NCBI GenBank assembly: GCA_964187785.1
Contig: OZ076409.1
Span: 49,850,001-49,914,000 of the forward strand
Direction of reading: 5' to 3'
DNA from: Amphiscolops sp. MND2022
Lineage: Eukaryota
DNA: 64,000 nt
This document shows, piece by piece, positions 25,101 through 64,000 of this stretch. The position numbers and the translations under genes were made by a program. The notes below the pieces were generated by a model, which was not told where the DNA came from, did not search any database, and saw nothing but the letters and a program-made list of their open reading frames with translations. Position 1 is the first letter of the stretch, and every line of letters begins with the position of its first letter.

Positions 25101-25960
25101 AGTATCATGAAGGCGCTGCGTGGTTTTGACGAGAGTCCTCGACGGGCTTTCCTTCGTGAATGTCAAGGATATTTATTGGAGTTCCTGAAAGTTCTTGGCT
25201 CGTGTTCTTATGCCAAGTCTCGTATTGCGCGATCACTCAGTTGTCTTAGTGTCGACATGTTATTGGGTGGTGACGCTGAGTATGTTGTGGATTTGTTCCA
25301 AGACCTTGTCCTCTGCCTCCAGGAATCGGGATGTCTGGGCGATGTGGAATGGGATGCTGCCATGAACGAGTTTAAATCCCTGGTTATAGATTTACGTCAG
25401 CGGGGTGTTGATTGTTCGCAGATCTCTGATGTCTTCAAATATCTGGAGGGACTTGAGAGTTTCCAGTGTCGGGGCTTTGTAAAGCAAGTTGTGCGGCTGG
25501 TCCGAGTCCTGCTCCTAAGTCATTGCCTCCTGTTGATATTTCGACTAGCGGGACAAGTTTGCCTCCTTCTGTGATCCGGTCAGTTCTCCGAAGTGTACAG
25601 TCATTTGTACTACATCCTAAATTCATGTCTTCCGATTTGCTGACTGTAGAATGTCTGGAGGAGTTGAAAATGAATCTGCCGAATGGTCCTCAGTTCTTGG
25701 GTTGTGGCGCCTTCAATCCATGGGTTGGTGTGAGTCGGCATCCCATTGAAGAGATCTGCAACAGTCTGTTTGAGTGTTACAACGCCTATTATTCTGGGCA
25801 ATTGAATGACTGGCGGACTCGGACGTCGTCTAGTGCTGTAGTGCCTTCGAGTTCTACTGTTGGTCGTGCCTCTGTGGAGTGTAGTCAGCCTGGGTCGTGT
25901 TCGTCATCTCAGACGGGAAAAGGAGGTAAACGTGCTGTGCGTCAAGGGAAATCCTGTTGA
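22121..25960 (+). CDS. Antisense 5-exon gene in element B encoding a ~1100-aa hAT-transposase-like protein with BED-like zinc finger (this copy probably damaged)
   Basis: Exons 22121-22478, 22562-22792, 22899-23102, 23242-23370 and 23536-25960 join in frame through four phase-1 introns. Three are canonical GT-AG; the fourth reads CTGAGT..AA. CSVC..RHFKCKGH finger; frameshift near 25505; AATAAA at 26082. Confidence 0.75.
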
Positions 25961-26290
25961 AAACTATTTGAAACTAAACTTTGATAGATGACTTTGATTT
26001 ATTTTCTTTGTTGTTTCTTTTATTGTGTAGCCATTGTTTTGATATAAGGTTCCGTCTGTCGGTTCCGTTGTTAGAGAAAGGAATAAAATTCGATCAATTA
26101 TGCTCTGGTAGTATGGAGCAAAAGAAAAAGGTTGAGGCAGCTCGGTGGTCCACTGGGTTATTCAATTTAGTATTTAGCCTCTGTATTGTTTTCATCCGAG
26201 TCGTAGAGTAAAGAGTAAAAAGTTTTGAGAGAGAGGGAGCCAGTACGAATTGAGGATATTTGATATTGAGTCACAGAATGGCCGTCCAGG

Positions 26291-29200: not shown

Positions 29201-31810
29201 ATTGGAAAACCTCTCAAATTGTTTTTCAACTCTTCGGGAGTGTTTGTGGCGATTCCAATGTCGTCCACGTATTGGGCGCATTTGTCCGCCTTTATGGCCT
29301 TGTCCAGGTATTCCCTCATGAAACTTGAGAAGGACGATAGTGAGCGGCTCAGTTCTTGGGCCAGTCTCAGGTACGCAAACGTTCTGCTGGCAAAGTTGAA
29401 GGCTAGGAGCTGGACGGACTTCTGGTCTGCCATCTGCAGTTAGTGTGCTGACCGGATGGTTATTGTTAATATAGTCATCGGAGATCAAGGTATTGATCTT
29501 TCGGAGGTCCACTAGGAGGCGCAGTCGTCCATTCAGTTTGCGCTGGGCGAAGATCGGGCTGGCGTACTTGCTGAACGGGAGGGTTGTTATGATCCCGAAG
29601 TAATGCATTAATGCTAGTTCCACTGTCAAGTCCTCTTTCAAGTTAATAGGGCAGGGCAGGCTTTGCGAGTAGACTGGGTCGTCCGTTTTCGGCGTGAGTT
29701 TGATTTTGAAGTCATGGTTGATTCCGATGTCCAATCGGTGCCTCGCGAAAATGTCATTGAACTCTATCAGTATTTCTTGAATGTCTTTTTGGTCATTTTC
29801 TGTTAGTTGGGAATCATCCCATTTTAAGTTTTTGAGGAATGCTTCTCGGTCTTCTGCGTTGTTGTTGGGGTCCAGCTTCTGGATCTCTTCCAGTTCTTTG
29901 ATTTCCCTCAGTATCCTGCTCTGAATTGGCGTGTGGGTATTTGGGTCTCCAGGATTATCTGGTGTGGGGAACCAAAAGTTTTGACTGTGGGAAGGTTGGT
30001 CAGAAGTTTTCAGGAGTTCGTTGATGTATATTATTGCATCTTCTGAATCGTCCTCCGTGAGTACTTTTAGTGCTGCTGTGTTGAGTGGTTTGAGTTCTTT
30101 GGCTTCTTCGAGTGACATGATTTTGAACTCAGCAACAGTTGTATTCTTTTTTATGGTGTAGGGCGTGGGGGTGGTGTTGGTTACTCTGACGTCAGTTTTC
30201 CGGTTGGAGGCTGTGGATATCGAACTGGCTACGACCAAAGGGACACCGCTGCAATGGTTGGTGGCTGGGTTGATGACACCGGTTGTGTCGATGGTAGATG
30301 TTATGTCCGTGTAGGCGGTGATTGTCTTGGTTGTCTCAGGAGGAAAGGTGAGTGGACTCTTGACTTGTACTTTGTATAGCTTTCTGTTGCGGGTAAATTC
30401 ATCGGTTTCAATCGAGTACGTTAGATGGGGGAAGTGGAGTAGGCCTTGGCTTACATCCAGAATGGCGCTGTTGTTTTTCAGGAATGTGAGGCCGAGTCTT
30501 GGGCCTGTGAGTCGTTTTGCGACGATGAACGTTTCTTTGAAATTCGAGTCCCCGATTTCGAATTGGAGGATTATGGACTTGGTGGGGGTTTCAATGTCGC
30601 CGTTTGCGACTTGGAGTTTGAACGGGGGTGGTTCCAGTTCTTTGACTATGTCCTTGGGGACATCTGGAAGAATTTGTTGTAATCGGTTTCGGAGATGCAG
30701 TTAACCAGTGCTCCGGAGTCGATGAGGGCGTCCAGGGTCAAGTCCTGGAAGTCCATTGGGGCAAATAGCATCTTCTTTTTCTTCTTAAGGGTCACCGCTG
30801 AGAAGATTGGGATGCATTCTTCTTTGGTGATGGGGTCTCTTGTGAGGTATTCTGCAATCTGAGCCATGGGGTAGGACTGGGGTTCGTCCTGTGTCGGTGT
30901 GTCGTTTACAGCACCTGAGGGGGATTCAGATTGCATGTTGGTTTCGGCAGCCGTAATGGGTCGGGGGTCCTCGACTTTATTTGCGGGCTGACTTCTTGGG
31001 GAGGAGGGTGAGGGCGGCGCCTCGTTGTAGGAGAGGGGCTCTAGGAGTAGAGACCTTTTTATTCTCCTTGTTTGCGGTGTGGAGATTGTTATCTCCGTGT
31101 TGGTTGTAGTTTGGGTCAGGTCCACGGCTTCAGTCGTGGTCCTGCTTGTGAGTTTTTGCGTTTGGTGACAGTCTGGTGCCACGTCCATTGTTGGGGCTCG
31201 TACGATTCCGGCTCTGATGGGGTTGGCTGTTTGGTGTTTTGGTGGTGATTGTGGAGCCGTGGTTTGGGATCCATGGTTTTTGAGTATGGACTTTGGCCTG
31301 TTAGTCGATTCGTCGACTAGTATTTCCGTCACTCGTTCTGTGTCTTGGTCGTACTCTGGGACCGGTTGGATGGTTTTCGGTCTGTGGCGTGGTTCTGCTG
31401 ATATATTCATCCCGGTTGTCTTGATCAATTCCTCAAATGGGGTGCACTGCCGTTGTTTAAAGGTTAAAGTCGTTTTGTCGTATATTTTGGGGTTGTGATA
31501 GGGGTCGCAGTTGAAGTCGGGATCATGTATATAGGTTTCAGGGGCAGTAGTTTCGGGTAGTGGTCGTTTTGGAGTGTCGTAGTCGTTCGGGTTGTTAAAG
31601 TACCATTGTGGGTAGTCTTTTTTGGTCATTTTTTGACGGTTGTACTTTTGGAGCCTGTGGATTTGCCATCGTCGCTGCCAGTCGAGAGATGGTTGTTCAC
31701 AGCGCACGGTGATTTCTTCATGGTCGTAAGAGTTTGGGGGTTCCGATGTTGTGAAGTGTCGTGTGTGGACCTTCTTCCCAAACTGAAGATGTGGCGAACT
31801 TAGTTTTTTG
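26291..31810 (-). pseudogene. pol: pol of element B (PR, RT, RNase H, integrase with GPY/F), frameshifted
   Basis: LIDSGA protease; YASPIF..LRLLVDLRKIN and AQYVDD RT; LMTDA..YAKEFLA..NTAADFLSR RNase H; HH..CMEC, LQMDIV, TDKGSQF, LERTH integrase; WTGPYIV. Confidence 0.93.
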
Positions 31811-33261
31811 ACTGATTTGGTTCCTGGGGTTGGTTTTGCAGGCGGCATGTAGCCCATTTGGCTAGTTGCTTGGTTCTGGTACGGCGGCTGGGTCGCTTGG
31901 AAATTGTTTTTGGCATACTGACCTTGTGATTGTGGAGGTATCATGATGTTATTTGGGGACGTGGTTTTGGGGGTTTTCCACCACTGTGGTCGATTTGCCC
32001 AGTTGGCGCCTGAGTAACATTCTTGGGTTGTGTGGCTTTTCTTGCCACAGGTTTCGCATGGATCGACAATTTTGTTGGGACTCTGTTGCCTCTATTGCGA
32101 GCTTCGCGGGCTACTTTCCTGCAGTTTTTGATAACATGGCCGGATTGCCCACATCCGTACCATGGTCCTGACGCTTTGGGAGGATTCAGGGCTTGCTGTG
32201 GGTCTAGTGCATCGATTTGGTGCACTCCTGTTATGTTGGTCTCGTTGGGGGCCAACAGTCCGTTTAACTCTATCTCTCTCTCCAAGTGTTGGACCATCAT
32301 TTCGTAGGATTCAGTTTCTAACCTTGCTTGGTTCAGGACTCGTTTGAGGTGGGTTGGCATTTTGGCGTAGAAGGAGGTCTCGATAAACTTGGGGGCGTCG
32401 TCACCGTATGCTTCTTGAGCCAGTTTTTGATACTGCTCCAAGAAGTCTTGAAAAGTTTGTTGGGATGGGTCAAAATGGAGTTGTTCCCCTTTGCAGCGGG
32501 CTGTCGCGATAGATTGGGGCGGACATATCGTCGTCGGAAGGTCGCGATGATGTCGTCTATGCTGGCACGGTTTGTGTCAGTCATGTTGCGGTAGGTCTGC
32601 AGAGCATCATCCTTGAGTAGGGAGTGGAAATAGTGGATCTGCTCCTCTTCTGAGATGTTGGGATACACTTTGAGGCTGGTCATGAAGAGTCTTCAAAGTG
32701 CTCAAACTTGTCGTTCTTTCCGTTGAATGTGGGCATGGTTGTTGACAATGCCTTGGGCAATCTGGGGAGCCCTATGTTTTGTTGAGTGACATTCCTGAGT
32801 GATTCTAGCAGCTTGTCCACTATGTGATCCGAGTATTTCTGATTTGGAGGCGGTAGGCTCGATGATCGGGGCGGTGCTTCTGTTTGGGGGAACACTCCTG
32901 TCACCATGTGTTGACCCTGAGATGGGTGCAACTCGTTCAACGTAGTTGGCCTTGATGTCGAGGCTTGATTTTCAGGTTCGTAGAGATCTACTATAGGATT
33001 TTCAGATCTAGGCGGGTGGCCGGACAATGAGTCTATTTTTGAAGATAGATTCTCAATCATCTTCAGGATTTCCCTTTGCCCAGTTTCGGCATCTTTTATC
33101 CTTCTACCAACTGATTTTTCGATTTTCTCGGAGATTTCGGAGAAATCACGATCAGAGATACTGGGTACATTTTCAGTCCTTTGGCTAGCTGCTTCAGGTT
33201 CACCTAGTGAGCTGGATACTGAATCCCTTCGGGCTTTCCTTTCAGAGGATCTTTCGGGCAT
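31800..33261 (-). pseudogene. gag: gag of element B, initiating inside the 5' LTR
   Basis: ATG at 33261 within the LTR; MPTFNGKNDKFEHFED capsid-like motif; zinc-knuckle remnants (xYGCGQSGHVIKNC); several frameshifts. Confidence 0.85.
32893..32906 (-). promoter_or_regulatory. Primer binding site TGGTGACAGGAGTG (tRNA-Leu-like)
   Basis: Directly follows the LTR terminal CA; 13 of 14 positions match the familiar tRNA-Leu PBS TGGTGTCAGGAGTG. Confidence 0.75.
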
Positions 33262-35084
33262 TTTGGATTTCAAGTTTACAGGTTCAAACTATTCGACAAG
33301 GAATGAAGAAAGGTTGAGATTTTTAATCTTCAATTGAGTTTTGTAACAAGAGAAACAAAGTTGCTTTACAGTGAGCGGTTATTGAATTTTCAGAATTTAT
33401 CAAAATTATTTTTCAACTGCAAATATTTAACTTTTCCAAGTATATATACTTTTCACCCACGTGAAGCGGGGAAAAATCCGCACCACTTTCACGTTTTATT
33501 CAGCCCGGCGTCCTTCCAAGGCGGAGAAACCGGAAGTTCAGTTCCGCTTTGTCGAACTCAGGCTCTCAGTTTGTTCATGCTTCCCGAGGAAAGCACGCGT
33601 CCACTTCCTGCCTGAGTTGCGACTCCGCTTCCCTTCGCCTCCAATTCCCGCCTTTTCAGGACGCCGAAGCTGAAATCAGCAACAAAATGAGCGATGATTC
33701 AACAATTCGCTCTTAAAAAGCAGGAAAAGTGAAATTAAAGCAACGACAATTATGGAAATTAGAAATTCCCCAAAACGATCTAACTGATTTAAATATTTCT
33801 CCAGATAATAGTTTTTTCAACGAAACTGCACTTAGGCTCGTAAAACCACTCGTGGGGGCATGAAAACACTGATTAGGTATGAAAGGACAAAGCTCGGTCT
33901 CAGGTTGAGGTCCGAGACGATTAGGGCAAAATAACTGATTTCCCAAAAATAGCAACGACTAACAATTTGTGATTTAAATCAACGTGGGATTGCGATTCAG
34001 GTCATTTCTCAATCCTGTTTAAATGGGGATTAATTTTTAAAGGGTAGTACAAATCATTAATAGTGATTAAATAACTCAAGCCAAAGATTCAATTCCCAGG
34101 TCGGGGTCTAGGCCGTGGTTTAATGCATTCAAAGATAAGTATTGCTACATGAATAAATGGTCACAAATTGCATGTAATCAACCACTAATTCTTACGATAC
34201 TGCGTATTTGGATTGTGGTTTCACTGATGAGACGATGGATAATCGGGAGCACCGATATTTTCACTTTTAGGATGGATTTGGACAAACCTGATTTCAGGCC
34301 GGGTCCTGGGCTACAGTTTATTACATTTAATAATCAATCTTGGTTTACATGGGTGAATAGCATTGCACAACACTCTTGACCGTTATTCAATCGTTTTTCA
34401 TTGTGGGTGTTTAGTTATCGGGTAAAAATCATCAACCAAATTAACAATTTCCATTTCTACAATGGATTTTATAAATTTACATTTCAGGCCACTTCCTGGG
34501 CCGCGGTACATTACTTCCAGTTAAAATCAACACAATTCGTACATTACTCAGGGAATTACATGTAAATCATCACATTAGTTGTCTTTGTTTGCATCACCAC
34601 TTTTACATGTAATCATTTAATAGCGAGTTCACTGCTGCATAGTGTTAAATAGCTCATTCCAATTTCAGGCCGCTTGCCAGGCCGCCGCTTCACTGCGCAA
34701 ATCTGAGGCCGGTCGCCAGGCCGCGGTTCCGCCTTCAATCTTTCAAGCCGTTTGCTTAGCGGTGTGATTCTATTATTATTAATTATATAGCACTGTATTA
34801 TTATTATTATTATTAACTGCACTAATAGCTCCGTACTTGTTGGTACATTGTGTGTGTATGTATATATTCTTGCATGAAATTATGTAATTATTAGTATTTA
34901 TACATTTATAAATATAATTTTAGCTCCAAGCTGATTTAAAGTAATAATTTATAAAAGTAATAAATTAGTTGTATATTAGTTTCTTCACTTGCCTTTTCTT
35001 CTGTTTCGGTCTAATTCCAATTTCCTTCTTCGTAGACCGCGCTTCTTGTGTGACAGTTTTCACAGCTTAGCTGGGGCTGTGACA
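32907..35084 (-). repeat. 5' LTR of element B (2178 bp)
   Basis: TGTCACAGCC..GGTCAACACA on the minus strand, followed by the PBS. Confidence 0.95.
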
Positions 35085-37349: not shown

Positions 37350-37852
37350 TAACAAGCCGGGACCGGCCCAAGTCGTCGCCATATCCAAGGCTCAAAAATA
37401 GCAAAAAGACTTCCAAGTGTCAAGTATTCACTTTTACAGTACTCGAAAATCGAAAATTTTTCGAAAAAAAAATGGACCGACTGGCGCGCTAAAGTCTCTC
37501 AATGCCGAAAAACTGAAAGGGGGGACCCTTTGGGATTTTCCAACATCCATTCTGTCGCAAAACAGCAAAAAAATTGAAGGGGGACCCTTTGGGGAAAAAT
37601 TTCCCGGAAAAAAATCTCGCAGTGCCGAAAAAAATTGGAAGGGGGACCCTTTGGTCTCCCCGGGTATAGTATGGTACGCGGGAAAACAGGAAAAACCTTT
37701 TTGGTTCAGTTCGCTAGACCAAATAGTGCAATTTGGTGCAATAATATTTTGTAGAACTTTTAAGAACTATTTTGGTCAGTTCGTGTGGATTGAAAAAAAA
37801 GAAAAGTCACTATAATAGTCGCGTTTCACTTCATGAAGCGCCGACTAAAAAA
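37350..37852 (-). mobile_element. HINE copy 4 (best preserved)
   Basis: Reverse complement begins ttttagtcggcgcttcatgaagtgaaacgcgacta and ends ggcgacgacttgggccggtcccggcttgtt; internal gggggaccctt subrepeats. Confidence 0.65.
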
Positions 37853-41330: not shown

Positions 41331-42145
41331 TATTGAGTGTCAATATGTATTGATTCTAACTTAGTTGATGCCGATATCAAAGCACGCTAAATTCACCATT
41401 TTTTAAACCTGAACAATTAACCGGAACATTAAGGGGAACAATGAGTTTGTTTGTCAAGCTCTATGAATCTCACAAAATTCATTGGCAGTCAGAAAAAACA
41501 TCTAAAAGTTTAACAAAATATAAGATGTCTAGCAAGTTTAACAAAGCTTTTTACGTCGTGATTTGAGGTACGTAACGTCAGGTGACGTGGAGTCTAGAAA
41601 TTCGGAAAGCTCAAAGGGTTCAATCGCGGAGTAGCTGCGGTCACTGACATCGAGTACAGCGAGACACTTGTCTACAACCAGACGAGCTTTTGTGAAGTAG
41701 ATTTCGATTGTGTGTTGAATGTTGTCAGAAAAGAGAGACTGCAACCCAACCCACGTAGCAGCACTCGAAGCATCTATGTAGGTTTTGGCTGGTGTCACTG
41801 ACATCTTGCAAAAAACGTTGACTTGGTGACCTCTGATTTTTATATTCCAATAACCATCTTTCGCTGAAAAAGAAAGATTCCAAGAATTGCAAAAAATGAA
41901 AATAATAGGAATTCAGTATTCCTGAATTTTTTTCAGTTCTGAATGCTTTCTAGAATTTTTACCTCCAAAACACTTTTGTTGAAGTTCCAATTATGCATCA
42001 GTTTGGCTTGTAGTCAGTGACAAAGAGTACCCAAACGATCACAGTGGTTTAAACAAGTAATAAATTTTCACTAACTTTGGCGTATCACCAAAAAAATATC
42101 CAATTTCATGACGAATGCAAGTCTAGATGAAACCATATGTCTTCT

Positions 42146-42491
42146 TTATAGTCAGCGCTTCATGAAGTGAAACGCGACTATACTAATGGCTTTTTTCAAT
42201 CCAAGCTAACTCACCAAAATAGTTCTTAAAAGTTCTACGAAATTTAATGGTGTCAAATTGAAGCTTTTGGCACACGGAACTGAAATATAAAAGTTCTTAT
42301 GTGGACCTGATTCAAAAAGGTAGTTCCTTTTTTTCGGCGTAACGCAACACCGGGCGAGACTAAAGGGCCCCTTTTGTGAGACTTTTTTGAAAATGATTTA
42401 ATGACTTCTAAGCGTCCCCCTTCAATTTTTTGGATGCTTTGCGATCCACCTTTAGATATGGTGCCGACTTATGCCACTGTTCCCGTTTGTT
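42146..42491 (+). mobile_element. HINE copy 5
   Basis: Starts tagtcagcgcttcatgaagtgaaacgcgacta and ends tagatatggtgccgacttatgccactgttcccgtttgtt; same ends as copy 4 in the opposite orientation. Confidence 0.65.
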
Positions 42492-42544: not shown

Positions 42545-44873
42545 TGTCACAGCCCGCTCCCGGACTGGCTTGTGGGTGCAGACGGGTAGGATATGGGAGA
42601 GGCCATGGTTGCGGATCGAGATTCCCAAAATGGTATCTTAACTGTTAGACTCAAAACTTTGATTAAAATTAACTGAGGCTAGGTACAAAATTACAAGCCT
42701 TTTTTGCGCAAACCTTGAATGAAAATGAATATTAGAAAATTAAAATAGACAAAAATGATTTCACGCATTTCCGCCAAGACGTTTACGCCACGCTGAAATA
42801 GAAACATTCTCCACCTGAAAACTAAATTGAAATGCGCCTTGAGATAAAGTCATAGACTAATCAAAACACTATACCGACTTATCTCTAAAGCATCAATCAA
42901 ATCTAAAACAGAAGTTACATTGAATTGGTTCACTAAGGAGAATACGCTTATCTAAGAAAAAGCAACTTAATTGCTCTTTGAACGGCAATTAGTGCAGATT
43001 TGGACTACCACTCATCACTAAGTAAACAAATATGGCCGTGGCAGCTGGTTTTGCTATGTTAGTGACGTTAGCAATATGTCAGCAACTAAACAACTAGATA
43101 AAAGTATTCCAAATTATTCGTCGGGATCACGTCACTAACTTTCCAGCTAGCTTGAAGTTCATTCCTAAATACTCGTCAGCAACTTGTTAAACTAGGCAGC
43201 TTGTCATAAAAGTTTGTCAACACTACGTCGCAAATCCATCAAAATAGCTGTTTCTGTCCTTTCCATGGTAGTAACTTAATAGCGGTTTCGAAGGAAAATA
43301 TCAAAAAAAGACTGTAGATTCACATCTAAATTTAACAAGGATATAGTCGATAGTTTGAAGAATACGTTTTACTTTCTATCCGATAAATTTGGCGACGATT
43401 TAATTACGAAAATTGAGGTTTACTAAATTTCGCTATCAAGGAAATGTTCCGGTATTCACTAAAAGTCACAGTTGATGCATACAAAGAGTTAAATTGACAG
43501 TTACTTTTTGATACTGAAAGATTTGTAAATGTGATGTTTCTACTTTTTCAGAATAACAATATAGTGAAGCTGTTTGATACCAGGTTGTTGTTTTCTTTTC
43601 GACAACTCGTGGAATCTAAGCTCAGAATAGACTTTGCAGTTTGTGATTCATTTTTACCAGTACACAGTACTTGTTGTTAAATCAGTGAATATTCAATATT
43701 TTCGCATATTGTTGCTGTTGGAATGTCGTTCGTGTTAACTAATAATACAAATGTAAATTTTGTTATCGGTAATAACGCGTTGCTACCTAAACCTGTTGCT
43801 ATACATGAGACTAATTAACGTTAACGTGTCGTCAAATACTCTTTGACTAAAATGTTAATAGATGTGGATAATAAGTTGAACTAAATAATTGATTGCTCTT
43901 ATACATTAATCAGCCTTTTTTCATCTCCTAGCATCTCTTATGTTTCAAACGAAAGCGATTAGTCATCATTTCTTTTCAAGTGAAATTCAAAATCAGGTGT
44001 TAATTGTTCACGTCAGCGTCATCCCAGCGTCAATTTTCTTACGAACCGAAGCAGTAAAACAAGAAAATTTTTGCGGTTTGTCAGACTGAAGTAAAATCTA
44101 CTTCCTGCTTAGGAGGAAACAAAAGGACGCTGGAATGAAATGGTATGATCATGTTTGATGACCAATACCAGACCAAAAAGTTTGTGTCCCAAAATTTGAC
44201 GAAATGTTGACGCAAATTAAGGATAGTGATGACTTTTTCACCGAAAATACAGGAAATGACTAATTGTTTATAAGATTTTAAGGTTTTAGTTTGTGATCAA
44301 TTGATGCTAGGAGGGTATAAATACGGCGTAGCCCGGAGATTAAATGACTCAGTCTTTTGCTTTGATACAATACAATTGTTCTGAAATTTCTCGTTAACTT
44401 TGCCCCATCTCAGTTTGAAGGTTCAATCAAGAATCAATTGGAAATACAAAATCAAACCCGTTTCATCAAGATGTCTACTACAAGAAGTCAGAAAACAAGA
44501 AACAAGCTTCAGGAAAGCTCTGAAAGTGAAGTGAAGGTTTAATCTCGCCAGTTATAGTAGAAAACTCAAGATTCTCAAACCAAGACGTATCAGCAACGGG
44601 GCCTTCGAAAACCAAATCCTCAGGATTGAAAATAGTGTCTAAGAAAGTTTTCGAGCTTCTTTGAGAAAGAAAATGTCTTCTGAGATAAAAGCCATCCCAA
44701 AGGAATCTCAAAAGGAGTTGATGAATCTGCTAAAACCTAAAACAGGAGAGGAGAAAGTGCAAGAGCAGAGGGCCAAAACGAACTAGAAAATGAAACTAGG
44801 TGTTTTTATACTCCTACAAAATCAGTAAGAATGAACTCTACTTATAACAACGACCCGAGTACAAGTCGTAACA
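42545..44873 (+). repeat. Putative 5' LTR of element C
   Basis: Starts TGTCACAGCCC like LTR B, ends CA directly before TGGTGACA; contains gag start ATG at 44471. No second copy in the window to confirm. Confidence 0.65.
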
Positions 44874-51126: not shown

Positions 51127-51433
51127 TTACTTGTTCTCCAATCTAACTTCAGCTACTCTACAACTTTTCTTCCCGCGCTTACTCGTTTCCTTCTTGGCAC
51201 GACTGGGCTCACCCTCCTTGTTCTCCTTTTTCCGCCCAGGTAGAGACGCCAAGCTGGTATGGATCCGTGTCTTACTTTGTCGAAACGAGCTCGAGCCGCT
51301 AGAAGTACTAACGGACGAAGTCGGATTTTCAGAGCAATCCATGGCAAAAGAATCACCATCACTTTTGACGCACATCTTGCGACCAGACCGGTTTGCCTGA
51401 TAAAACCGCTGATGAGCTTCCTCCTTACACGAG
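51127..51433 (-). pseudogene. C-terminal remnant of an antisense gene of element C
   Basis: Minus-strand open frame just downstream of pol ending in a Ser-rich then basic tail (..SSGSSS..KRGKKSC..), like the tail of the B antisense protein (..SSSQTGKGGKRAVRQGKSC); cut by the element D LTR. Confidence 0.45.
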
Positions 51434-52911
51434 TGTGACAATCCTCTCCTGTGCGGTCCTCATTCATGACCACAGAGTCGTTTAGATCAATGTTTTGCAT
51501 GCTCAAAGGTTGCATTGGCGTTCTAAGTTCGTTTAAATTAGATGGCCTGAAAGGGTTATCCTGTATTTCACATTCTTGATTTTCTGTCTCAGATGCGTTT
51601 AATTCACCGTCCTCATTACTTGCGTATTTTGAGGTTCCTGCTCCGGGGGTGTTTTGCTCTCGATATCAACTGTTTGGTACGGATTGTGTTCTTCTGTTAT
51701 TTTGCATCTCTTTCAGTATTTTCTCTAGTTTTCCATCCATTTCTTTCCTTAAGTTTGCTACTTCTTTGTTCGTTTCATCTGATATTCTTTGAGTCCAAAT
51801 TTGCATTTCATCTTCATTTTGTGTTCCACTGTCTAGAGCTATTTCTTCGTCCCTAACTGAACTAACATTTTCAAAGTAACCTAAAGTTTCGATAACATTT
51901 TCATTACCTTGTGATGTCTCTATTTCGGATGTGCTCAACTCTCTCTCAAGTGAGGGTGATTGTCCTCGTCTAGATCTTCTATTTCTCTTGTTACCCATTT
52001 TAGTCAGGTTAAAATGCTGTTTTGGAGAGAAGAATTTCAATTAGAATGATGAGCAAAGTAGAATTAGGTTGAAATGAAGTTGGAGAAAATGCGCATTATG
52101 ATAAGTTATCAAAGTTGAAACAATGGTTGTGAGCATGAAAAGAAAGGTCTGATCTGTCTGAATGTTTTCTGTTGAATGGTTTTTTTGGGTTCTTACTCTT
52201 CTTTTTGATTTGGGCTAAATTTAGCAGCATGACAAGCACTTTTAAACGAATCATCATTACATCATTATTAGGTAATGGCTAAAAATAGCGCCCCGTTCTT
52301 TTCCAAAATTATATAAATAGATACTTACATGACACAATTATCTATTAATAGCATCCTGCATGATGTCATATACTTCATTCTGATTGGTTACGTATAGCTC
52401 ACATTGAGCACTGATAAAAAGTGAATACTACATCATGATTCATTTGACTCTATACCAGTACATTACCGAAGTAACTAAGTGTGAATACAAATGAGTCACA
52501 TCTTCGAAGGTCATGTTCTAAATTTCAAAGGAATGAAATTATACGGCATTATGCTGCAAACTTTATGCAGAATCAATACTTCCAGTTGCAAGTCACATGT
52601 TATTATGTATAACAGTATTATACTGCCGCATAATTTATTCGTTTCACAAACATCTGAACAAGCTAACTTTAGACATAAGGCGAATGAACAACTATTACCG
52701 TGTTTGTATGTAAATCAGCAGTAGTAAGGATATTTACATAGCATCAATAGCAAATAAAACTTAACACAACTGGTGCTGAAACATCGCAAATAAATTAACA
52801 TAACATGAGTTTTACGTGTTGACAAGTTTTTGAATGGGGGACAGTAGGCGGTTTGGAGCATTTGCCGTCAACGCTGCACCACGGATCCAGCTCATGCTCT
52901 CGGCTGTGACA
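51434..52911 (-). repeat. Putative 3' LTR of element D (1478 bp)
   Basis: Minus strand TGTCACAGCCGAG..GAGGATTGTCACA; contains the gag-like ORF MGNKRNRRSRR.. from 51998 to the LTR end (frameshifted). Confidence 0.7.
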
Positions 52912-55123: not shown

Positions 55124-57299
55124 ATGCCGCGGTCAACTTCAAGTTCCGCTCGCCGAAAACAGTCATCTCCCGGGAAGCACCGCCGATCATCATCAATGGA
55201 GCTGGCTCATCTTCTCCGGGAAAACGGTCCAAGATTCTTCCCTCTGAACGTGCTAAGCTTGAATTTAAATAGATCCCTGACGAAGTCAGATAGTGTTTTT
55301 ATTTCCTTTTTTGAGACGTCTCAGATTTTAATATGAGTTGGCCAGACTCATATTTGTGTCGACTATCTTCATATTTGTCAACTTCCGGTTCTCGAATTTT
55401 AGGCGGAAATCTCGATTTCCTGTTTGCTAGTTTCGCACAAATTTCAAATTTTGTTTCAGATTCTTCCCCAGCTAAACCACAGAGCGGCACTCGGAATCGT
55501 CGGAACCCAAGAAAACGACGCTTACTCAGAAAATTTTACTCGATTGCGGATATAATCCGAGGTCTGCGTTAGACGAAGACAATCTTCCGCCTGAGTTTAC
55601 TCCACAAGTGCTTCTGGACGATGATCACAATCAGTTTATTGATGCTGTTACTCTCCCTGCTAATTTGTCCTCCAAATTACAGGGAGTAAAAGAATTTATA
55701 CTACGTCAAGCAGCTTCAAACACTGCTCCCATTGGTAACGTGCTGCCTTACGAAACAGTATCTCCTGAAATCTCTGGTGACACACAGAAAACTCCTCCAA
55801 TCAAAGCAAACCCACTGCTAGAGACTGCTTCCAAAGGGTCTCCTTTCACGCGTTTTTTGCTTGAGTCGGGAAAACAAGAACGCGAGAGCCGAGGCGACAA
55901 AACCCAGGAGAGGGTGCCAACTTTATCCTCACCAGACGAGCTTTAACGGCCTGAGGTCACACAGTAAGGGACTGGGGAGTCTCGGCTTGAACGTCTTTTG
56001 GCTGAAGCTGCTGAGGAGGCTACAGGAAAATGAAGAAAAAGTACTTCACTTCTGAGCGGACTTGTTCCAAAACTGTGCCGACAGAATCAGTGCCAGAAGT
56101 TCAGCCCAGCGGGGAAATGCCTACCCCAACTACTTCAAAAGTTGTTCGCAAAAACACTGATCAAAGCTCTGATTCCAGTGATGCTCCTGATTCTGATTCG
56201 AGTTCGGAACTTTCTTCCTGTGAAGTTTTGGTGGCTGTCCGCGAACGGCCTATCAAGCGTCAAGGAAAACAGAAATCAAGCGGGGATTCGCCGCCGCGGA
56301 AAAGAGCAAAACCCAGATATGTCTTGGCGGGCAGGATGTATTACAAATACCCATTCTAAAATTCTTTGTGACAGCACCATCTGATGCGGCCAGATACCCG
56401 TTTAAGTATCGGTTGAGAGTCTGTTTGGTCGAGTTATCTTTGATGACTAAGAGCCCAATAGAGATACTACACCACTACAGAACCGATGCTCACCTCGTGA
56501 AGGAACATCGCATACGAATGGAGAGCCCAGGCTTGCCACTCTACGACAAGCATTGTGAAGAATTGACTGGGATGACTCGATCCCTCCTAAATTGGGAGAT
56601 TATTATCTGCGAGTTGGCCAACTGGAGCAATCGGACTAAACACCAGCAGAAGTCCCGGACCAGGAAGTTTCCTCACAGTTAAACCTTCTGCGCTATGGGC
56701 TCGTCCACGGGGGGCACTTGGATACCCCTATTGCTCTTTGGGGTGATTTGGTCTGTGGAACCAAGACAGTAGAACCTATCGTCGAACACGACTGGAGGCC
56801 CCACCGAGTCTTTGTGAGTAAAATTCACTTTTTTAAATAAAGCTTCATTCCGGAAAACTTGTATATTCTTGTTCTGTTCCAGGGACTCTTGACACATATG
56901 TTCCGCGAGCTATTGTCTTACTGTGTTACTTCAATTGAATCAAGTGGCAGTTATTCCCTCCGCTTATCCGTTCTACCAGACGAAACCCGTTTATTCGTTA
57001 ACTTCTGGGCGGGCAATTCCTTACACAGTATGTGTTTAGCTGTATTCCCCGGGCGCGTCTTCTCGCCATCTGTCCTCATTCCACCTCTCGGCAGCTTCTT
57101 TTCCCTCGTCGAGCAAGACGTGCATCTATTATTTATGAAAGGGTTCTCGCAACGACTAGGATGGGCTATCTCTCGCGTATTGCCTCAACACAAGAAGATA
57201 TTTTCAACACCCAAGTTCGATCCTGATGATCTAGAGCGAGTTCTACTTGTTCCTTTACAATACATATGCCGCAAAAGTGGAGTTTATCATCAAGTGTAA
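55124..57299 (+). pseudogene. Antisense spliced gene of element D, homologous to the hAT-like gene of B, degraded
   Basis: YRLRVC..SLMTKSPIEILHHYRTDAHLVKEHRIR aligns with B FNCSVC..SFLSRGPRGIWRHFKCKGHFAKDRRYR; acceptor at 55460; intron 56814-56882 (GTGAGT..CCAG); frameshifts and stops. Confidence 0.65.
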
Positions 57300-57729
57300 A
57301 GTGTATTTTCAGTAAAACGAGAGCGAACCGTATTTTAGTCAAACAGTGCATAGTGTAAAGTTCACTAGTGTACAGTGTACAGTGGGTAGTGTACAGTCCA
57401 AATCACACCGTGTAACGAGCAAAACACGTAACGCGTTTTTGAAATAATGGAGCGTTTTTATTGGCTGTTAATCGTACTAGCAAGATCTTGCTAGTTCGTT
57501 GCGGCATTTGTATCGTAATGTTCTGTTCAAGTTTTGGACCATTTTGATTTTCGCTCTGTGCTCGATTTCCTACTCCTGCGTCTTCGGTCAGCTTGTGGGA
57601 GCCCGTGGTTATCTGCTTTACCCGAATTCCAGAAGGTAATGTTCCACATTTCCCTTGTTCCATTTTTTATCCGAAGTGTTATTCTCTGATCATTTTCCGT
57701 GTTCTGTATTTTATACTGTTTGTCGGCTT

Positions 57730-58683
57730 TGTAACGGCTGCTTGCCCTTATCCTGCGCTGAGGCTTGACAAGCTTTACGCCGCCCTGATCCGTTGCTTAG
57801 TGCTGTGGACCGTCACTAAACAATTCCTGGTTTTTCGTGTTTAAAGGACTGTATCTTTTGACTGGTGGGTCCGATGTGACCCGTGGAATCTCCTGCGATT
57901 CCTCTGTTCACTGAATTGGATCCGATGTGATCCTGCACACACTTCCCTCACAGTATCTTCACGCGCTCCGGCTCTCCAACTATGAGAGTAGCTACTTAGT
58001 CGCTCTAACTCTAGCGAAAAGTTGTGAAGATTGAGAAGTTGATTAATTAGTCTCTTGGTCCTAAGACCCAACTTGACTATAGCTATTCAATGGAGATAAT
58101 CTCTATCTAACAATGGTATACATATGGTTTACAGTTCTACAGTAAATATAAGCAAATATCAGTTGAAATATGTTGTATAAATAAATGACATTTAAAGCAT
58201 AAAATGAAGTTATTGGCTAAGTAAACAAACTATGTGGTGGTTTTGGCATGTTGGTCAGGTGGGTTAGAAAGTATGTTTACACAATGTAAATATCAGTAAT
58301 TTCAACAGAGATGAATTTCCTTCAAGGTCAAATAGGAAAATCACATAATAACTAATATATCAAAATTGGGATTTCATGGAGTCCGACCTAGGTCACTTTG
58401 GGTGTTAATTGCTCGGAACCCAGGTGAGACACGGGGTAGGTTGTTAAGAGTGAAAAGTTAGTGTATCACCACCACTATAGGTGTGCCAAGTTTCAAGGTG
58501 ATTGAATCAGTGGTTTTCCGGGACGGGGGGGGGGGTGGTGTTTTTTTACATAGGGTCATTTTTGCTTAGACTTGTATTTTTCCATCTAAAATCTTGATAA
58601 ATTTTCTAAGTGTTTTGAGTTGTAAGTTTCATCAGTCACGTTCGAATTTGAGTTTCTGATCTCGCAATTGACTGGCGCCAACA
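57730..58683 (-). repeat. 3' LTR of element E
   Basis: Direct repeat of 62168-63121. Confidence 0.97.
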
Positions 58684-61331
58684 TTGCCGGCCCTGTTTTT
58701 CTCCTGAAAAACACTTTCGTAGAACATGGGTGCCAGTTTCACTACTGGTCTTTTGAGTTTTCCATCTTCAGTTTTCACTAGCGCTGATCTCACTCGCCCA
58801 TCGCTTCCATGATAGACGTCCAACACTCTACTCATCTTGTAGTGTGCTCTTTTCACATTCTCATCTACTATCCAAACCAAATCATTGACTTCAAGTTGTC
58901 TAACCTCTTCTTTATTCCATTTTCCAAAAGATTCTTGTCGCATCATCACTTCCCACGATGCGGCCGGCCCTATGCAAGGCTCAATTTTACAACTTGTTGC
59001 TGCTCGGGCTTTTGAAGAACCCAATTGCGTTTCCATTAGCGATATTTCGTCTGCAAATTTATCTATCACAATCTTTGCAAATAGGATGCCAGTTGTCAAT
59101 TGAACACATTCGACCATTCCATGTAATAGGTTTGAGGTGTGTTCAAACTTCCGAGCTTGTTTCTTCGGTCGCTTGCGGTGGCCTTTGCTCAATTGAGTTT
59201 TATCCATGCCGTTAGCCTGTGCCACCGCGTCCATCCCAGAGTTTCCATTACCAATCCGAGGGTTCCACTCATTGTTATTACTCGGGATAATTTCTTCTAC
59301 AAGGCTTACTTTGAAGTCAAAATCAAATTTCTTTCCAAAGGTTGCAATCATGGTACGTGTTTCGCCTTTGGCATTGCATTCAACGGGTTCGTCATGTTTT
59401 GCTGCAACATGGCATAGCTTTCGATACATTGCTTCATCACTACAATCATCAAGCAGTGCAAATTGTTGCTCATGCACAAATCCATAACTTTTGTCGAATT
59501 CAAAACATTTGTTTCCTTCTTCAAGAAGTAGAGTACTGTCATGAAGCATCGTCACTTCAAATATTTTCCCTTGCTGTACATCCTGTTGAACGGTGAAAAC
59601 TTCTGCACTCTCTTGCAGCAGTTCACGTTGGACACTCGATTCTCCCAAAGTTTGCTTGCTAGATGCGAATGATAAGAATCTATGCTCCTTCCTTGTTTCC
59701 GTCCTTGTGTGATTCAATATCTCTTCTGTTTGCACTATCGAATGCTCACTCATGCCTAAGTGAATCTCTTCTTCCAAAACCTGTTTGGTATCCACGAGGA
59801 GGGTTTCTGAACGGACGTCTTGCCGACCGTTGTCTACAATGAATGTTTCTGACCAGTTCTGTATGCATTCCGCTGTGAGGAACTTCGAGGTTCCTTTGTT
59901 TGCAACTTTCACGTCTGGTTGTGATGTTGCTCCTTGTCTGCATGTTCCGTTATCAACATCGGTTCTGTCTTTCCGATCAGCTTGCTGATCAACTTCTGTG
60001 GGAGGTTTTGAGTCTCTCCTAAGCGCGGAGAACTTTCCTTCGTGAACTAATTTCACTGCATTCTCTGATTTCAAATGAACTGATAGTGCAATATTGGACT
60101 TAGCCCCGTCTTCGACTGTTTCTGTCTCAGCCATGCATCTTGAGTCTTCCGTGAAACTGTCGACTGATGAGACACTTGGGAAGCTAGTCCCCTGACTGCT
60201 CGACACTTCCGCTATTTCTCTTTCCTTTTCAGCTATTCTCGCTTTGCGGGCAAGCTGTTCATGCAAGTCAGCTATTTCCATTTGTATTGCTTCACGCTTC
60301 AGTTTCTCGAGTCGGGTTTGCAGTTCTTCTTGCTCTTTTTGAGCTTTTACTTTCAAATAAAGAACTCGTCTAGCAATTGAACTTTTCGAAATCACTGAGC
60401 TTCTGTTGCTTCTGGTTTCAACCAGTTTTGGATGTTTGCCCAGTTCCTCTATTTCCAATTGTCCAGTCTCGCTTCTTTGGCCTTGGACTTCATCCGATTT
60501 CTGATCTTCCGCTTTCTCTAATGCTAGAGGAAACAGTCGATCTCCATTAGACCACTTCGTGCTAACTGTTGGTCTGTTGTCCATCAGGATTGTTACGTCA
60601 GACACCTTACCGTTTTCTTCGGGTAGTGATGTCACATAGTTGACTGAGTTTTCCAATTCTGATATGCTGTCTCTCATAACACAGCAACTTTCTTGGTAAT
60701 TGGTCCTTCTTGACCGTTTCAGTGATTCGTTTTTACTAGCTGTTTTCTTTACACAATTAGGTTTTGCCTGATGGACACCGCCTCTTTGCCTCAACTTTCC
60801 TGTGCGAAGGCATCTCATAGCTGCGTCTGCAGATGTTCCATTTGTCATCTGACTCAGTTTCAACTCTTTTGTCCCATCAATTGGACACTTCAACATTTGC
60901 TGCACATCGGGGAACCAATATCCACAACTCGATTCCAGATTCGCAAAGCATTCGTCCCATTCAGTCACACTTCGACTGAGCTGTCTTTGCGTTTCTTCAT
61001 TTGTAAGACTCAACATAAAGTCTACACAGAACAGCAACGCCTGTCTTCTCTCGCGGTATTCAATTACCCGATCAATCAATTTGCTTTTGGATACAACAGC
61101 TCCTTCCTCATCGAGCTTGTCATCCAAGTCTTTTACCAATGTATGGAGCTTTTTCACATGTAGGGGTACAATATCCCAATAGAGGCACCACGCGTACCAA
61201 TCTGACGCATTTTCCAAATCTTTCGGTCTGAGCTCCATCAGTTGTTGGCTCTGCTTTGTGTTTCTTTCCTCAAACACAATTGCCATTCGAGGGTGCTGCA
61301 ACACTTGCCTTTCTTTCTTTTTGGCTTTCAT
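58632..61331 (-). CDS. 899-aa ORF of element E: coiled-coil/gag-like N-terminus fused to the BEL/Pao post-integrase (DUF5641-like) domain; no RT, RNase H or IN core
   Basis: C-terminus KW..LEVNDLVWIVDENVKRAHYKMSRVLDVYHGSDGRVRSALVKT..LKRPVVKL is characteristic of the end of BEL/Pao polyproteins; no YxDD RT or DDE motifs found. Confidence 0.8.
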   Translation of the reverse strand: MKAKKKERQVLQHPRMAIVFEERNTKQSQQLMELRPKDLENASDWYAWCLYWDIVPLHVKKLHTLVKDLDDKLDEEGAVVSKSKLIDRVIEYRERRQALLFCVDFMLSLTNEETQRQLSRSVTEWDECFANLESSCGYWFPDVQQMLKCPIDGTKELKLSQMTNGTSADAAMRCLRTGKLRQRGGVHQAKPNCVKKTASKNESLKRSRRTNYQESCCVMRDSISELENSVNYVTSLPEENGKVSDVTILMDNRPTVSTKWSNGDRLFPLALEKAEDQKSDEVQGQRSETGQLEIEELGKHPKLVETRSNRSSVISKSSIARRVLYLKVKAQKEQEELQTRLEKLKREAIQMEIADLHEQLARKARIAEKEREIAEVSSSQGTSFPSVSSVDSFTEDSRCMAETETVEDGAKSNIALSVHLKSENAVKLVHEGKFSALRRDSKPPTEVDQQADRKDRTDVDNGTCRQGATSQPDVKVANKGTSKFLTAECIQNWSETFIVDNGRQDVRSETLLVDTKQVLEEEIHLGMSEHSIVQTEEILNHTRTETRKEHRFLSFASSKQTLGESSVQRELLQESAEVFTVQQDVQQGKIFEVTMLHDSTLLLEEGNKCFEFDKSYGFVHEQQFALLDDCSDEAMYRKLCHVAAKHDEPVECNAKGETRTMIATFGKKFDFDFKVSLVEEIIPSNNNEWNPRIGNGNSGMDAVAQANGMDKTQLSKGHRKRPKKQARKFEHTSNLLHGMVECVQLTTGILFAKIVIDKFADEISLMETQLGSSKARAATSCKIEPCIGPAASWEVMMRQESFGKWNKEEVRQLEVNDLVWIVDENVKRAHYKMSRVLDVYHGSDGRVRSALVKTEDGKLKRPVVKLAPMFYESVFQEKNRAGNVGASQLRDQKLKFERD

Positions 61332-61694
61332 TTGTTCATATGACTCTTTTGTTCCACTGAGGGCTTTCGAACTTCACATTTGTTTCTTGTAGGCTTTGTC
61401 ACTTATCCCAACTTTGCAATTTCTCAGATACAAAGTGTCAACTGCTCAATCCGGTAATCAATCGCCAATTCTTGAAGAATCAACCCAATACTGTCGATTA
61501 TACTTGCCTTCTTTGACGAACTTGGTTTTTTCAGTGGATCGTGTCCCTCTGACTTGATCCCTTTGCTTTACTTGGTGGATTTACTTGCAATGACGTCTTA
61601 GACCAGATCTTTGCTTCAATCAGGAATACGATCCCAAAGAATACAATTCGTCTCAAAAATAGAATTGATGCACAAATACCTCCAGAGTGCCGCT

Positions 61695-62005
61695 AAAGCC
61701 CAACTCCCAGAGTACACAGTAGTCCCAACTCCAGAGTCACTATAGTCCAAAGACCCAGAGTCACAATAGCCCAAGCTCACAGAGTCACAGTAGCCCAATC
61801 TCCCAGAGACACAGTAACCCAATCTCCCAGAGACACAGTAGCCCAATCTCTCAGAGACACAGTAGCCCAATCTCCCAGAGACACAAAATCCCAATCTCCC
61901 AGAGACACAGTAGCCCAATCTCTAAGAGACACAGTAGCCCAATCTTCCAGAGACTTAGTAGCCCAATCTCCCAGAGACACAGTAGCCCAAAATCCCAGAG
62001 ACACA
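61695..62005. repeat. 24-bp minisatellite (gtagcccaatctcccagagacaca)n in the 5' UTR of element E
   Basis: About 12-13 tandem copies, degenerating leftwards. Confidence 0.95.
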
Positions 62006-62076
62006 AACTTAGAGACTCCAAGATCCAGTTCTTGGGCAATCTTCTGTTGTCTACCAACGAGTCGTCTTCTTCTAGT

Positions 62077-62167
62077 CCGGGTCGTCCACCAACGAGTTGT
62101 CCGGGTCGTCCACCAACGAGTTGTCCGGGTCGGCGGACCAACGAGTTGTCCGGGTCGGCGGACCGAA
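62077..62167 (-). repeat. Four tandem 24-25-bp PBS-like units next to the 5' LTR of element E
   Basis: Minus strand: TTCGGTCCGCCGACCCGG, TGGTCCGCCGACCCGG, then TGGTGGACGACCCGG twice, separated by ACAACTCGT. Confidence 0.8.
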
Positions 62168-63121
62168 TGTAACGGCTGCTTGCCCTTATCCTGCGCTGAG
62201 GCTTGACAAGCTTTACGCCGCCCTGATCCGTTGCTTAGTGCTGTGGACCGTCACTAAACAATTCCTGGTTTTTCGTGTTTAAAGGACTGTATCTTTTGAC
62301 TGGTGGGTCCGATGTGACCCGTGGAATCTCCTGCGATTCCTCTGTTCACTGAATTGGATCCGATGTGATCCTGCACACACTTCCCTCACAGTATCTTCAC
62401 GCGCTCCGGCTCTCCAACTATGAGAGTAGCTACTTAGTCGCTCTAACTCTAGCGAAAAGTTGTGAAGATTGAGAAGTTGATTAATTAGTCTCTTGGTCCT
62501 AAGACCCAACTTGACTATAGCTATTCAGTGGAGAAAATCTCTATCTAACAATGGTATACATATGGTTTACAGTTCTACAGTAAATATAAGCAAATATCAG
62601 TTGAAATATGTTGTATAAATAAATGACATTTAAAGCATAAAATGAAGTTATTGGCTAAGTAAACAAACTATGTGGTGGTTTTGGCATGTTGGTCAGGTGG
62701 GTTAGAAAGTATGTTTACACAATGTAAATATCAGTAATTTCAACAGAGATGAATTTCCTTCAAGGTCATATAGGAAAATCACATAATAATTAATATATCA
62801 AAATTGGGATTTCATGGAGTCCGACCTAGGTCACTTTGGGTGTTAATTGCTCGGAACCCAGGTGAGATACGGGGTAGGTTGTTAAGAGTGAAAAGTTAGT
62901 GTATCACCACCACTATATGTGTGCCAAGTTTCAAGGTGATTGAATCAGTGGTTTTCCGGGACGGGGGGGGGGGTGGTGTTTTTTTACATAGGGTCATTTT
63001 TGCTTAGACTTGTATTTTTCCATCTAAAATCTTGATAAATTTTCTAAGTGTTTTGAGTTGTAAGTTTCATCAGTCACGTTCGAATTTGAGTTTCTGATCT
63101 CGCAATTGACTGGCGCCAACA
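62168..63121 (-). repeat. 5' LTR of element E
   Basis: Direct repeat of 57730-58683. Confidence 0.97.
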
Positions 63122-64000
63122 GGCTTGTTTTAAGCCTTGTTTAACAATCTCAAGATCCTTTTGAATTTACAACCTTTTAGTCAGGTTTTTGATTTCACGA
63201 TTTTTGCGATTTCACACCTCTTGTTTTGTTTCTTTCCTGCTGCATATTTGCAGCATAATTGTTAATCATTCCTTTTTGCTTCTTGTCCTGCGACTAAGAT
63301 ATTTATTATGCATAGAAAAGTCTACAGCATAATGCAGCAAAATTGGTTCTTTTGATCCATTCCTTTCTTCGAATTTACTTCATGATTCATTGACGCGTGA
63401 CAGCATAAACACTCGTATGTCTCATGACGTAATAGTGTTGACCTTTGTTGAATTTTATGTATTGCGAAGTTAGTCATCAACTTCACCGTTATGTCATTGT
63501 TTTTGTGCGTGCTTCTTTTGAGTTAGTTGTGAGTCATAACATTAGTATGTTGACGTTGTTTTGTTCCAGATCATCGTAAACCTTGACTAAGATTTACACC
63601 AAGCTGTGGAACTTTTGGACCACCTCGTCAGCAATTGGGACAAAGTCGTGAAACATCTCAAAGATAGCCGACGTATTCCCATCTATCGTTCCCATATGCA
63701 AGAGGTTTGTATTCATTGTTTCTTTTCATTTTCGTCTTCAGTACGCAATTCATCTTTTTATCTTATTTGACACATATGCTGCCAGTGTTTCGTTCTCGGT
63801 ACTGTTATAATTTCCTCTTTGGTTCGAAATCTTCTTTTTCTTTTCAGCCCTCTGGGATGGACGATCTTCTCATCGGGGACCAAGTTTTTGTGGCACGATT
63901 GTTCATAACACGCAATGTCCTGAGCCAATGTTAGTATCTTGTTGCTTTTTGTCTAGTCTTTTACTTGTGTGTTTGTTATTATTTCTTTTCTTTGAACATT

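Follow-up and report, generated by a model that had tools for sequence, protein, structure and literature searches.

The window (the whole stretch of DNA analyzed here, 64,000 nt) is eukaryotic DNA dense in LTR retrotransposons, and its BEL/Pao elements suggest an animal host. Element B (positions 19283 to 35084, minus strand) is a complete Ty3/gypsy element, in which we recognized a pair of LTRs with TG..CA ends (32907-35084 and 19283-21366; 97-98% identical), a target site duplication (TSD; AAAAC), a primer-binding site (PBS; TGGTGAC after the 5' LTR), and gag followed by PR-RT-RH-IN, with the RT, RH, and IN Pfam matches in gypsy order; its gag-PR-RT-RH-IN frame is decayed and broken by frameshifts. 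Between pol and the LTR at the 3' end, this element carries a long gene on the plus strand, antisense to the element (22121 to 25960; hereinafter, the cargo gene), and a short sense ORF that reads into the LTR (ORF-X; 21889-21293, minus strand, 198 aa). The B cargo gene has candidate GT-AG introns at its 5' end (donors at 22479, 22793, 23103, and 23375) and an intronless coding stretch (23520-25960, plus strand) with a frameshift near 25510. Element C, of a family related to B (5' LTR at 42545-44873, plus strand; gag-pol on the same strand), probably keeps the tail of the same cargo gene, to judge from a segment at 51130 to 51433 on the minus strand that resembles the C terminus of the protein P0176 (0 of 1,000 shuffles as high, but with a match in one of the seven targets tried).

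Element D apparently inserted at 51433/51434 in the 3' end of the cargo gene of C, giving a three-level nest with a BEL/Pao element in D and D in C. Its 3' LTR (51434 to 52911, minus strand; 1,478 bp) has the form TGTCACAGCC...TGTCACA and ends in CA. The LTRs of B, C, and D all begin with TGTCACAGCC. The earlier note had described the D LTR as different in sequence from that of B but alike in layout, and this was borne out: blastn gave no match between the two at an E value of 1e-8, and both elements display an LTR with the same start, a sense ORF running into it, and an antisense gene behind. The sense ORF of D (54019-52892, minus strand; 375 aa), at the position equivalent to that of ORF-X in B, also runs into the 3' LTR. 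In both elements, ORF-X is open, stands head to head with the cargo gene, ends in the 3' LTR, and has a small C-terminal Cys cluster; the similarity between the two is not significant (69 of 1,000 shuffles as high), and no family was found for them in Pfam or Atlas (best Atlas match, 0.86, with low recognition). The cargo gene is separated from ORF-X by 230 bp in B and by up to 1.1 kb in D.

The N-terminal 188 codons of gag lie inside the D LTR (51435 to 51998, minus strand), with one in-frame stop in this copy. The piece is 83-88% identical to residues 1-188 of 556-aa gag proteins (e.g., P0218), and these 556-aa proteins of the D family match the gag core of B and C. A search with the piece recovered 48 gag-like relatives among 626 candidates, and the match ends at 51435: 30 of the 48 enter gag via MVT/MMT, 14 enter unrelated flank, and 4 lack the marker. 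Because the homology ends at the LTR edge and the piece is a gag N terminus, the D LTR was assigned to a gypsy family. The 14 relatives with unrelated flank are LTR-flank fusions. The gag ORF begins inside the LTR in B (33261-32907), C (44461-44873), and D (51998-51435) and continues through the PBS (H-M-V-T); thus, each 3' or solo LTR bears a gag start of 120 to 190 codons reading into its flank. The identification of D as a solo LTR was considered and rejected, as the LTR flanks differ and there is no TSD. What the earlier note had treated as an element is, hence, an element by its gypsy family LTR, but it is not whole in the window, which holds a single D LTR; the gag-pol and 5' LTR of D would lie beyond position 64000. 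That the cargo lies between pol and the 3' LTR, on the strand opposite to gag-pol, is direct in B and in D is judged from the orientation of the LTR and gag.

Elsewhere in the window, there is a decayed short LTR element at 5733-11127 (887-bp repeats 92% identical, with gag- and protease-like remnants) that lacks the TGTCACAGCC start and in which no cargo match was found. AT-rich dispersed repeats, possibly MITE-like, occur in both orientations with 72-78% identity (1288-1506, 14213-14547, 37354-37851, and 42145-42298), and the protein P0212 runs from a D-family LTR into sequence related to this repeat (match at 14127-14315).

Exons and homology of the antisense gene in element D

The cargo gene of D appears from the pattern of its DNA to be spliced. 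It begins with a candidate 5' exon and intron (55124 to 55459, plus strand, as are all of the following pieces), with an acceptor (...tttgtttcag|) before 55460; 4 of 17 D-family proteins carry the same intron-tail signature before the residues DS at this acceptor. The large exon that follows (55460 to 56813) encodes an acidic/Ser low-complexity linker, a basic patch, a finger (56413-56493; C-x2-C-x17-H-x5-H, with Leu at the first Cys position in the D copy), and a three-helix segment. A 69-nt phase-0 GT-AG intron (56814 to 56882) comes after a conserved Trp+6 column and precedes an exon for the predicted RNase H-like (former DDE) core (56883 to 57272, 3' end approximate), whose fold is taken from the homologous part of B. 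Beyond it lie an intron of ~250 nt (roughly 57273-57530, boundaries approximate), an exon at 57531 to 57635 (5' boundary approximate), a phase-0 GT-AG intron containing the BEL/Pao element (57636 to 63569), an exon beyond that insertion (63570 to 63704; profile positions 387-411, with a stop at 63588), a 143-nt phase-0 GT-AG intron (63705-63847), and an exon at 63848 to 63928, after which the gene goes on past the window end.

This structure overturns the view in the earlier note that the D gene stops at 57299 and is shorter than that of B. The stop is most likely intronic, since three more exons follow that match the family profile collinearly; when linked with X residues, they form a single domain of 32.7 bits (profile positions 348-443; shuffle maximum, 2.4; 0 of 300). 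A true stop at 57299 was rejected on the same grounds, and the gene, as read from its DNA pattern, continues past this point and off the window. Matched to the family profile, the exon at 57531 to 57635 alone reaches 12.3 bits (0 of 300 shuffles as high; maximum, 1.1), and those at 63570-63704 and 63848-63928 together score 10.1 bits (shuffle maximum, 1.7; 0 of 300); the last exon on its own aligned to a wrong profile position, and its placement holds jointly with the preceding exon. The exons that flank the BEL-containing intron join without a gap relative to B, with an equal Phe-to-Trp spacing of 25 residues. All six D pieces combined reach 56.8 bits (0 of 300 shuffles). A 79-aa segment of the large exon (56577-56813) taken alone against the B profile was equaled by 29 of 300 shuffles and was placed through D-family relatives. 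This copy of the gene reads as a pseudogene: its frame shifts near 56030, 56356, and 56574 and is interrupted by stops at 55944, 56637, and 63588.

The BEL/Pao element in its intron (57730 to 63121, minus strand) is recent (954-bp LTRs 99.4% identical; TSD, GGCTT). It has a single ORF of 913 aa that matches DUF5641 only, without RT, so the element is probably internally deleted. A 24-bp tandem array (61683-62053) adjoins one of its LTRs.

The antisense genes of D and B are homologous over the finger region, as the earlier note had proposed. The alignment of D 56224-56679 with B 23520-25571 scores 74, which none of 1,000 shuffles reached (mean, 31.7; maximum, 50). A search with the D finger region recovered 17 D-type relatives among 90 candidates; one of them, P0191, is a close relative of D (64-67% identical over the finger region) and is itself 28% identical to B over 186 columns (E = 6e-10). 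A comparison of the D-family profile with the B-family profile gave a probability of 96% (E = 3.5e-9 over 180 columns). The next block (56841-57296), which had also been said to align, fared less well: it failed in pairwise comparison (825 of 1,000 shuffles as high) and was marginal against the profile (5.3 bits; shuffle maximum, 4.9; 0 of 300), although its position is collinear. When all six frames of the window were scanned with the B-family profile, five matches outside the B cargo reached at least 5 bits, and three of these were collinear D pieces (15.8, 7.8, and 14.6 bits), against a peak of 7.2 bits in a reversed-window control.

Predicted fold of the cargo protein

The B cargo ORF belongs to a sizeable family. 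We recovered 36 relatives among 8,000 candidates, with identities of 47-95%, many of them intact and 700 to 890 aa long, and clusters of these relatives reach 104 members; a wider search recovered 325 relatives at E values of up to 0.001. In all, the related proteins number in the hundreds, with identities of about 25-95%. The persistence of many intact ORFs of this length at 47-95% identity suggests selection for the protein. An env identity for the cargo was considered and rejected.

Comparisons with Pfam and with PDB sequence profiles gave no meaningful match, and none of the Pfam hAT domains (PF05699, PF14291, and PF27073) was detected, whether in 22 members (E values of up to 1) or in 28 proteins (up to 0.5). 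An AlphaFold model of the B cargo (pLDDT, 70) shows a finger, three helices, and a beta-beta-beta-alpha-beta-alpha core with a large helical insertion. With this model, Foldseek returned chains of the Hermes transposase at all of ranks 1 to 11 (best E, 9.9e-4; TM, about 0.3), and VIA placed Hermes first, aligning 357 residues with a Z of 13.9 and an rmsd of 4.9 against a Z of 8.2 for the next row, in a comparison where helical models can reach a Z of 13. The aligned range (model residues 223-676 on Hermes residues 151-606) takes in the insertion domain along with the split RNase H core, at about 10% identity. The Atlas feature search gave top matches of 0.89-0.93 that include hAT, FAM200, ZBED5, ZNF862, and C17orf113 clusters, its first match sharing 157 features, fewer than the 170 typical of same-family matches. 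The earlier description as a zinc finger gene thus holds for the finger homology but falls short of the protein, which is more than a zinc finger and has the predicted fold of the Hermes hAT transposase.

The finger itself (C-x2-C-x17-H-x5-H) is conserved in the family, alongside a basic patch; zf-BED was matched at an E value of 0.067 by 1 of 28 proteins. Modeled alone, the finger domain gave a pLDDT of 84.6, and fold searches with it pointed to no clear fold, with BED structures only at E values of 4.6 and 5.5. These values, together with the lack of a Pfam or PDB sequence match and a Foldseek E value of about 1e-3, would be compatible with a cargo that is a real gene of other descent and a Hermes match that reflects a generic RNase H-like core with helices. 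Against this stand the agreement of three methods (Atlas, Foldseek, and VIA) on hAT, an alignment that covers the insertion domain as well as the split core, and a matching order of domains (finger, helices, core, insertion, and C-terminal part), and we consider a non-hAT descent very improbable. The cargo is very probably hAT-derived cargo of an LTR element.

The catalytic columns were placed from general hAT motifs and the secondary structure of the model, rather than from a residue-level structural alignment, and on this placement the residues expected of an active transposase are not conserved. At the end of strand 1, where the catalytic Asp is expected, 50 proteins have Q (27), R (14), H (3), or K (2), with no Asp among the 48 of 50 shown; at the position expected on strand 4, 44 proteins have Q (14), R (11), L (6), or E (4) (40 of 44 shown). 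The motif F/Y-x-x-D/E stands where hAT has CxxH, and the column of the expected Glu is variable, with a D/E conserved in 44 of 49 proteins two columns after it. The D cargo reads like the family at these sites (LSV, MKG, and FDPDDL). Derived features are common to B and D, which have lost the same catalytic positions and carry F-x-x-D-x-L-x-R at the site of the hAT CxxH. The pattern suggests that the protein is a catalytically dead hAT derivative, with the conserved D/E weighing against this reading. The cargo is not an active hAT transposon, because DDE and CxxH are not conserved where they would be expected and no terminal inverted repeats (TIRs) were found around the B copy (a search of 21900-26400 for exact inverted 11-mers spaced by more than 1.5 kb gave none).

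Intron history and inheritance of the cargo

Further information on the age of the gene comes from its introns. A profile match that ends at positions 195-225 and is followed by a tail occurs in 19 of 202 family proteins; 14 of these 19 end at the same Trp+6 column and then continue with V-S/G/R, the read-through of a GT donor, and 52 proteins run through this column. The 69-nt D intron sits at exactly this column, and 9 of the 17 D-type proteins match its pattern. The Trp+6 intron is accordingly common to D and distant relatives and absent in B. Trees of the N-terminal domain were built from 35 and 30 hand-picked rows, with the presence or absence of the intron read from the protein tails. 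Under midpoint rooting, a single branch (support, 100/97; 94 with the tails trimmed) sets off the intronless rows, B among them, and these are nested among the intron-bearing rows. The intron is thus probably ancestral and was probably lost once. B, which has its candidate introns at the 5' end, has none across the stretch where D has four; such loss at the 3' side in the clade of B would be the pattern expected of cDNA-mediated loss.

Eight distant cargo fragments (P0135, P0138, P0150, P0155, P0157, P0167, P0171, and P0173) start near profile positions 444-460 with intron-like heads. The last D exon ends at a candidate GTTAGT donor (63929), which falls at the same place as those starts. There is hence a candidate for a second shared intron position near 444-460, absent from the clade of B.

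Between the D-type and B families, identity is 28-32% for the cargo and 38-55% for gag; the cargo therefore diverges faster than gag, in agreement with the proposal in the earlier note of a fast-evolving gene. The same proposal held the cargo to be old and vertically inherited rather than a one-off insertion, and this is supported in part. In its favor speak relatives of about 25-95% identity, the catalytic positions lost alike in B and D, one intron position across deep branches, and the same place and orientation in B, D, and probably C. Indirect links of the cargo to LTR elements are offered by the tail in C, by P0151, a distant cargo fragment (a 31% relative) fused to an antisense frame of gypsy pol, and by the sizes of longest contigs, in which 3 of 17 D-cargo clusters match D-gag clusters, compared with 0 of 36 B-cargo clusters (P = 0.029). 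Confirmed relatives were found neither in metagenome contigs (158 and 177 pattern matches) nor in viral contigs (27) or GTDB genomes (64).

The same facts bear on whether the copies are mere passengers, that is, hAT-like elements that nested independently or recently or, in D, a host gene beside a lone LTR, with no role for the retrotransposon. Nesting is rampant in the window (BEL in D, D in C), the gag-pol of D lies outside it, and the D copy is a pseudogene, all of which such an account would accommodate. It is harder to reconcile with a cargo that sits and faces alike in B, D, and probably C, with a D LTR that is not a solo LTR, and with the absence of the distant inverted 11-mers around the B cargo; moreover, a gene that lost its catalytic positions alike in B and D would be unable to move itself, and long intact ORFs persist below 50% identity. 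We regard a passenger origin as improbable.

Proposed role and comparison with known systems

With slightly better than even confidence, we interpret the cargo as an ancient, vertically inherited, catalytically dead hAT transposase that serves as an antisense accessory gene. Under this interpretation, an intron-containing hAT transposase gene would have entered a Ty3/gypsy ancestor in antisense orientation, probably as a nested insertion downstream of pol and ahead of the 3' LTR. In the replication cycle of a retroelement, the packaged RNA is the opposite strand to an antisense gene, and this orientation lets a spliceosomal gene travel in the element. Because it is the other strand that yields the genomic RNA, reverse transcription would leave the introns in place in each round. 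The protein would then have lost its catalytic residues while retaining the zinc finger, the helical segment, the RNase H scaffold, and the insertion domain, and the gene would since have been inherited with elements B, D, and probably C, with the clade of B losing its 3' introns. It faces away from ORF-X over 230 bp in B and no more than 1.1 kb in D, an arrangement that suggests a shared internal promoter, and the cargo may be read from an internal promoter of its own, head to head with the sense ORF-X.

A dead transposase scaffold that bears a conserved finger and a basic patch would suit a nuclear DNA-binding protein, and the long time for which diverged, high-copy families have kept the gene implies that it benefits its carrier. 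The product may thus be a nuclear accessory factor that acts on the DNA of its own element, promoting transcription or countering silencing, although the case for such element-directed regulation or anti-silencing is finely balanced. More tentatively still, and with considerable doubt, we can envisage that an animal LTR lineage domesticated a hAT transposase together with its introns, that a family-specific trans-activator or anti-silencer aided a high-copy radiation, and that a sublineage lost the 3' introns through its own RT. At the DNA level, only two or three elements have been seen, which weighs against the main interpretation.

A dead transposase might instead act at integration, binding LTR ends or target chromatin and tethering or chaperoning the preintegration complex, with no part in transcription. 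Hermes transposase binds both its element ends and target DNA. A scaffold with its predicted fold would be suited to such binding, and the terminal motif TGTCACAGCC is conserved among the otherwise unalignable LTRs of B, C, and D. However, integrase alone explains a conserved LTR terminus, and no shared target is visible, B lying in an AT-rich flank and D inside C. The TSDs are also an ordinary 5 bp rather than the 8 bp of hAT elements. We consider an integration role unlikely. A repressor or decoy that limits its own element, or poisons competing hAT transposases through mixed oligomers or the occupancy of sites, is a further option with precedent in the catalytically dead transposase derivatives that act as repressors, such as KP of the P element and derivatives of Ac. 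It would suit the conservation of the whole scaffold rather than of the finger alone; still, with about 10% identity to Hermes and no hAT sequence match, mixed oligomers with present-day hATs are unlikely, and the gene's retention in many high-copy families points to a direct advantage for its carrier. This option seems to us quite unlikely. The accessory factor that acts on its own element remains our preferred interpretation.

In its predicted fold, the cargo is like hAT transposases (Hermes; PDB codes 8edg, 4d1q, and 2bw3) and their domesticated derivatives (the ZNF862, C17orf113, FAM200/ZBED5, and GTF2IRD2-like proteins), with a hAT-like order of an N-terminal C2H2-type finger, a helical segment, and an RNase H-like core split by a helical insertion. 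It differs from hAT elements in the catalytic and terminal features set out above and in having no Pfam hAT match, and it differs from a DNA transposon or a single-copy host gene in being mobile as the cargo of a retrotransposon.

Structurally, it belongs to a known class, that of antisense ORFs that occur throughout a lineage and sit between pol and the 3' LTR. Plant Ty3/gypsy elements have antisense additional ORFs (aORFs) conserved across lineages at this site, namely, those of Retand (TRP28/PF04195), maize Grande (gene23), and rice RIRE2, according to the text available from PMC7264820 and PMC11963269; the same sources describe an internal promoter for the Grande aORF and propose a nuclear or DNA-binding role for plant aORFs, and the text of PMC8220671 at hand repeats this background only. 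TRP28/PF04195 was not matched in the 19, 22, and 28 proteins scanned, and the word "intron" is absent from the main text of PMC11963269. Unlike the plant aORFs, the cargo is a full-length, multiexon protein of 800 to 1,000 aa with a predicted hAT fold, and BEL/Pao elements are present in the same host. A second antisense extra gene in gypsy elements is brtn of the fungal Boty-like elements (PMC7264820 and PMC8365987, from the portions available), from which the cargo differs in being a large transposase-derived protein. The VANC anti-silencing proteins of Arabidopsis VANDAL elements resemble it in the functional model only, as accessory proteins encoded by a transposable element and acting on their own family; they are borne by DNA transposons and, in the available text of PMC6719617, need short repeated motifs, whereas the cargo is carried by an LTR element, and a search of the LTRs of B, C, and D for arrays of repeated 8-mers gave none. 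The LTR retrotransposons of bdelloids, also animal elements, have lineage-wide captured non-env genes downstream of pol (ORF3s coding for a DEDDy exonuclease or a GDSL esterase, with catalytic residues kept); their folds are unrelated to that of the cargo, and no antisense or intron-containing ORF3 was found in the available text of PMC5408684. In the available text of an acoel genome paper (PMC9911081), the words "antisense" and "gypsy" are absent, and a literature search covering mainly open-access main texts turned up no account of an antisense hAT-derived cargo in an LTR element.

Antisense extra genes in LTR elements are thus already known, and the new part appears to be a traceable hAT origin. 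Plant aORFs are without an established origin, and in the text available from PMC7264820 their lack of similarity to transposable elements is said not to support a nested-transposon origin; here, the origin of such a gene appears traceable to a DNA transposase. If the cargo counters silencing, it would be a rare animal case next to the plant examples, the only ones listed in the available text of PMC6719617 (2019). In the cargo family, intron loss inside a retroelement can also be studied as a natural experiment, and, if our interpretation is true, it would represent one class of transposon domesticated by another rather than by the host.
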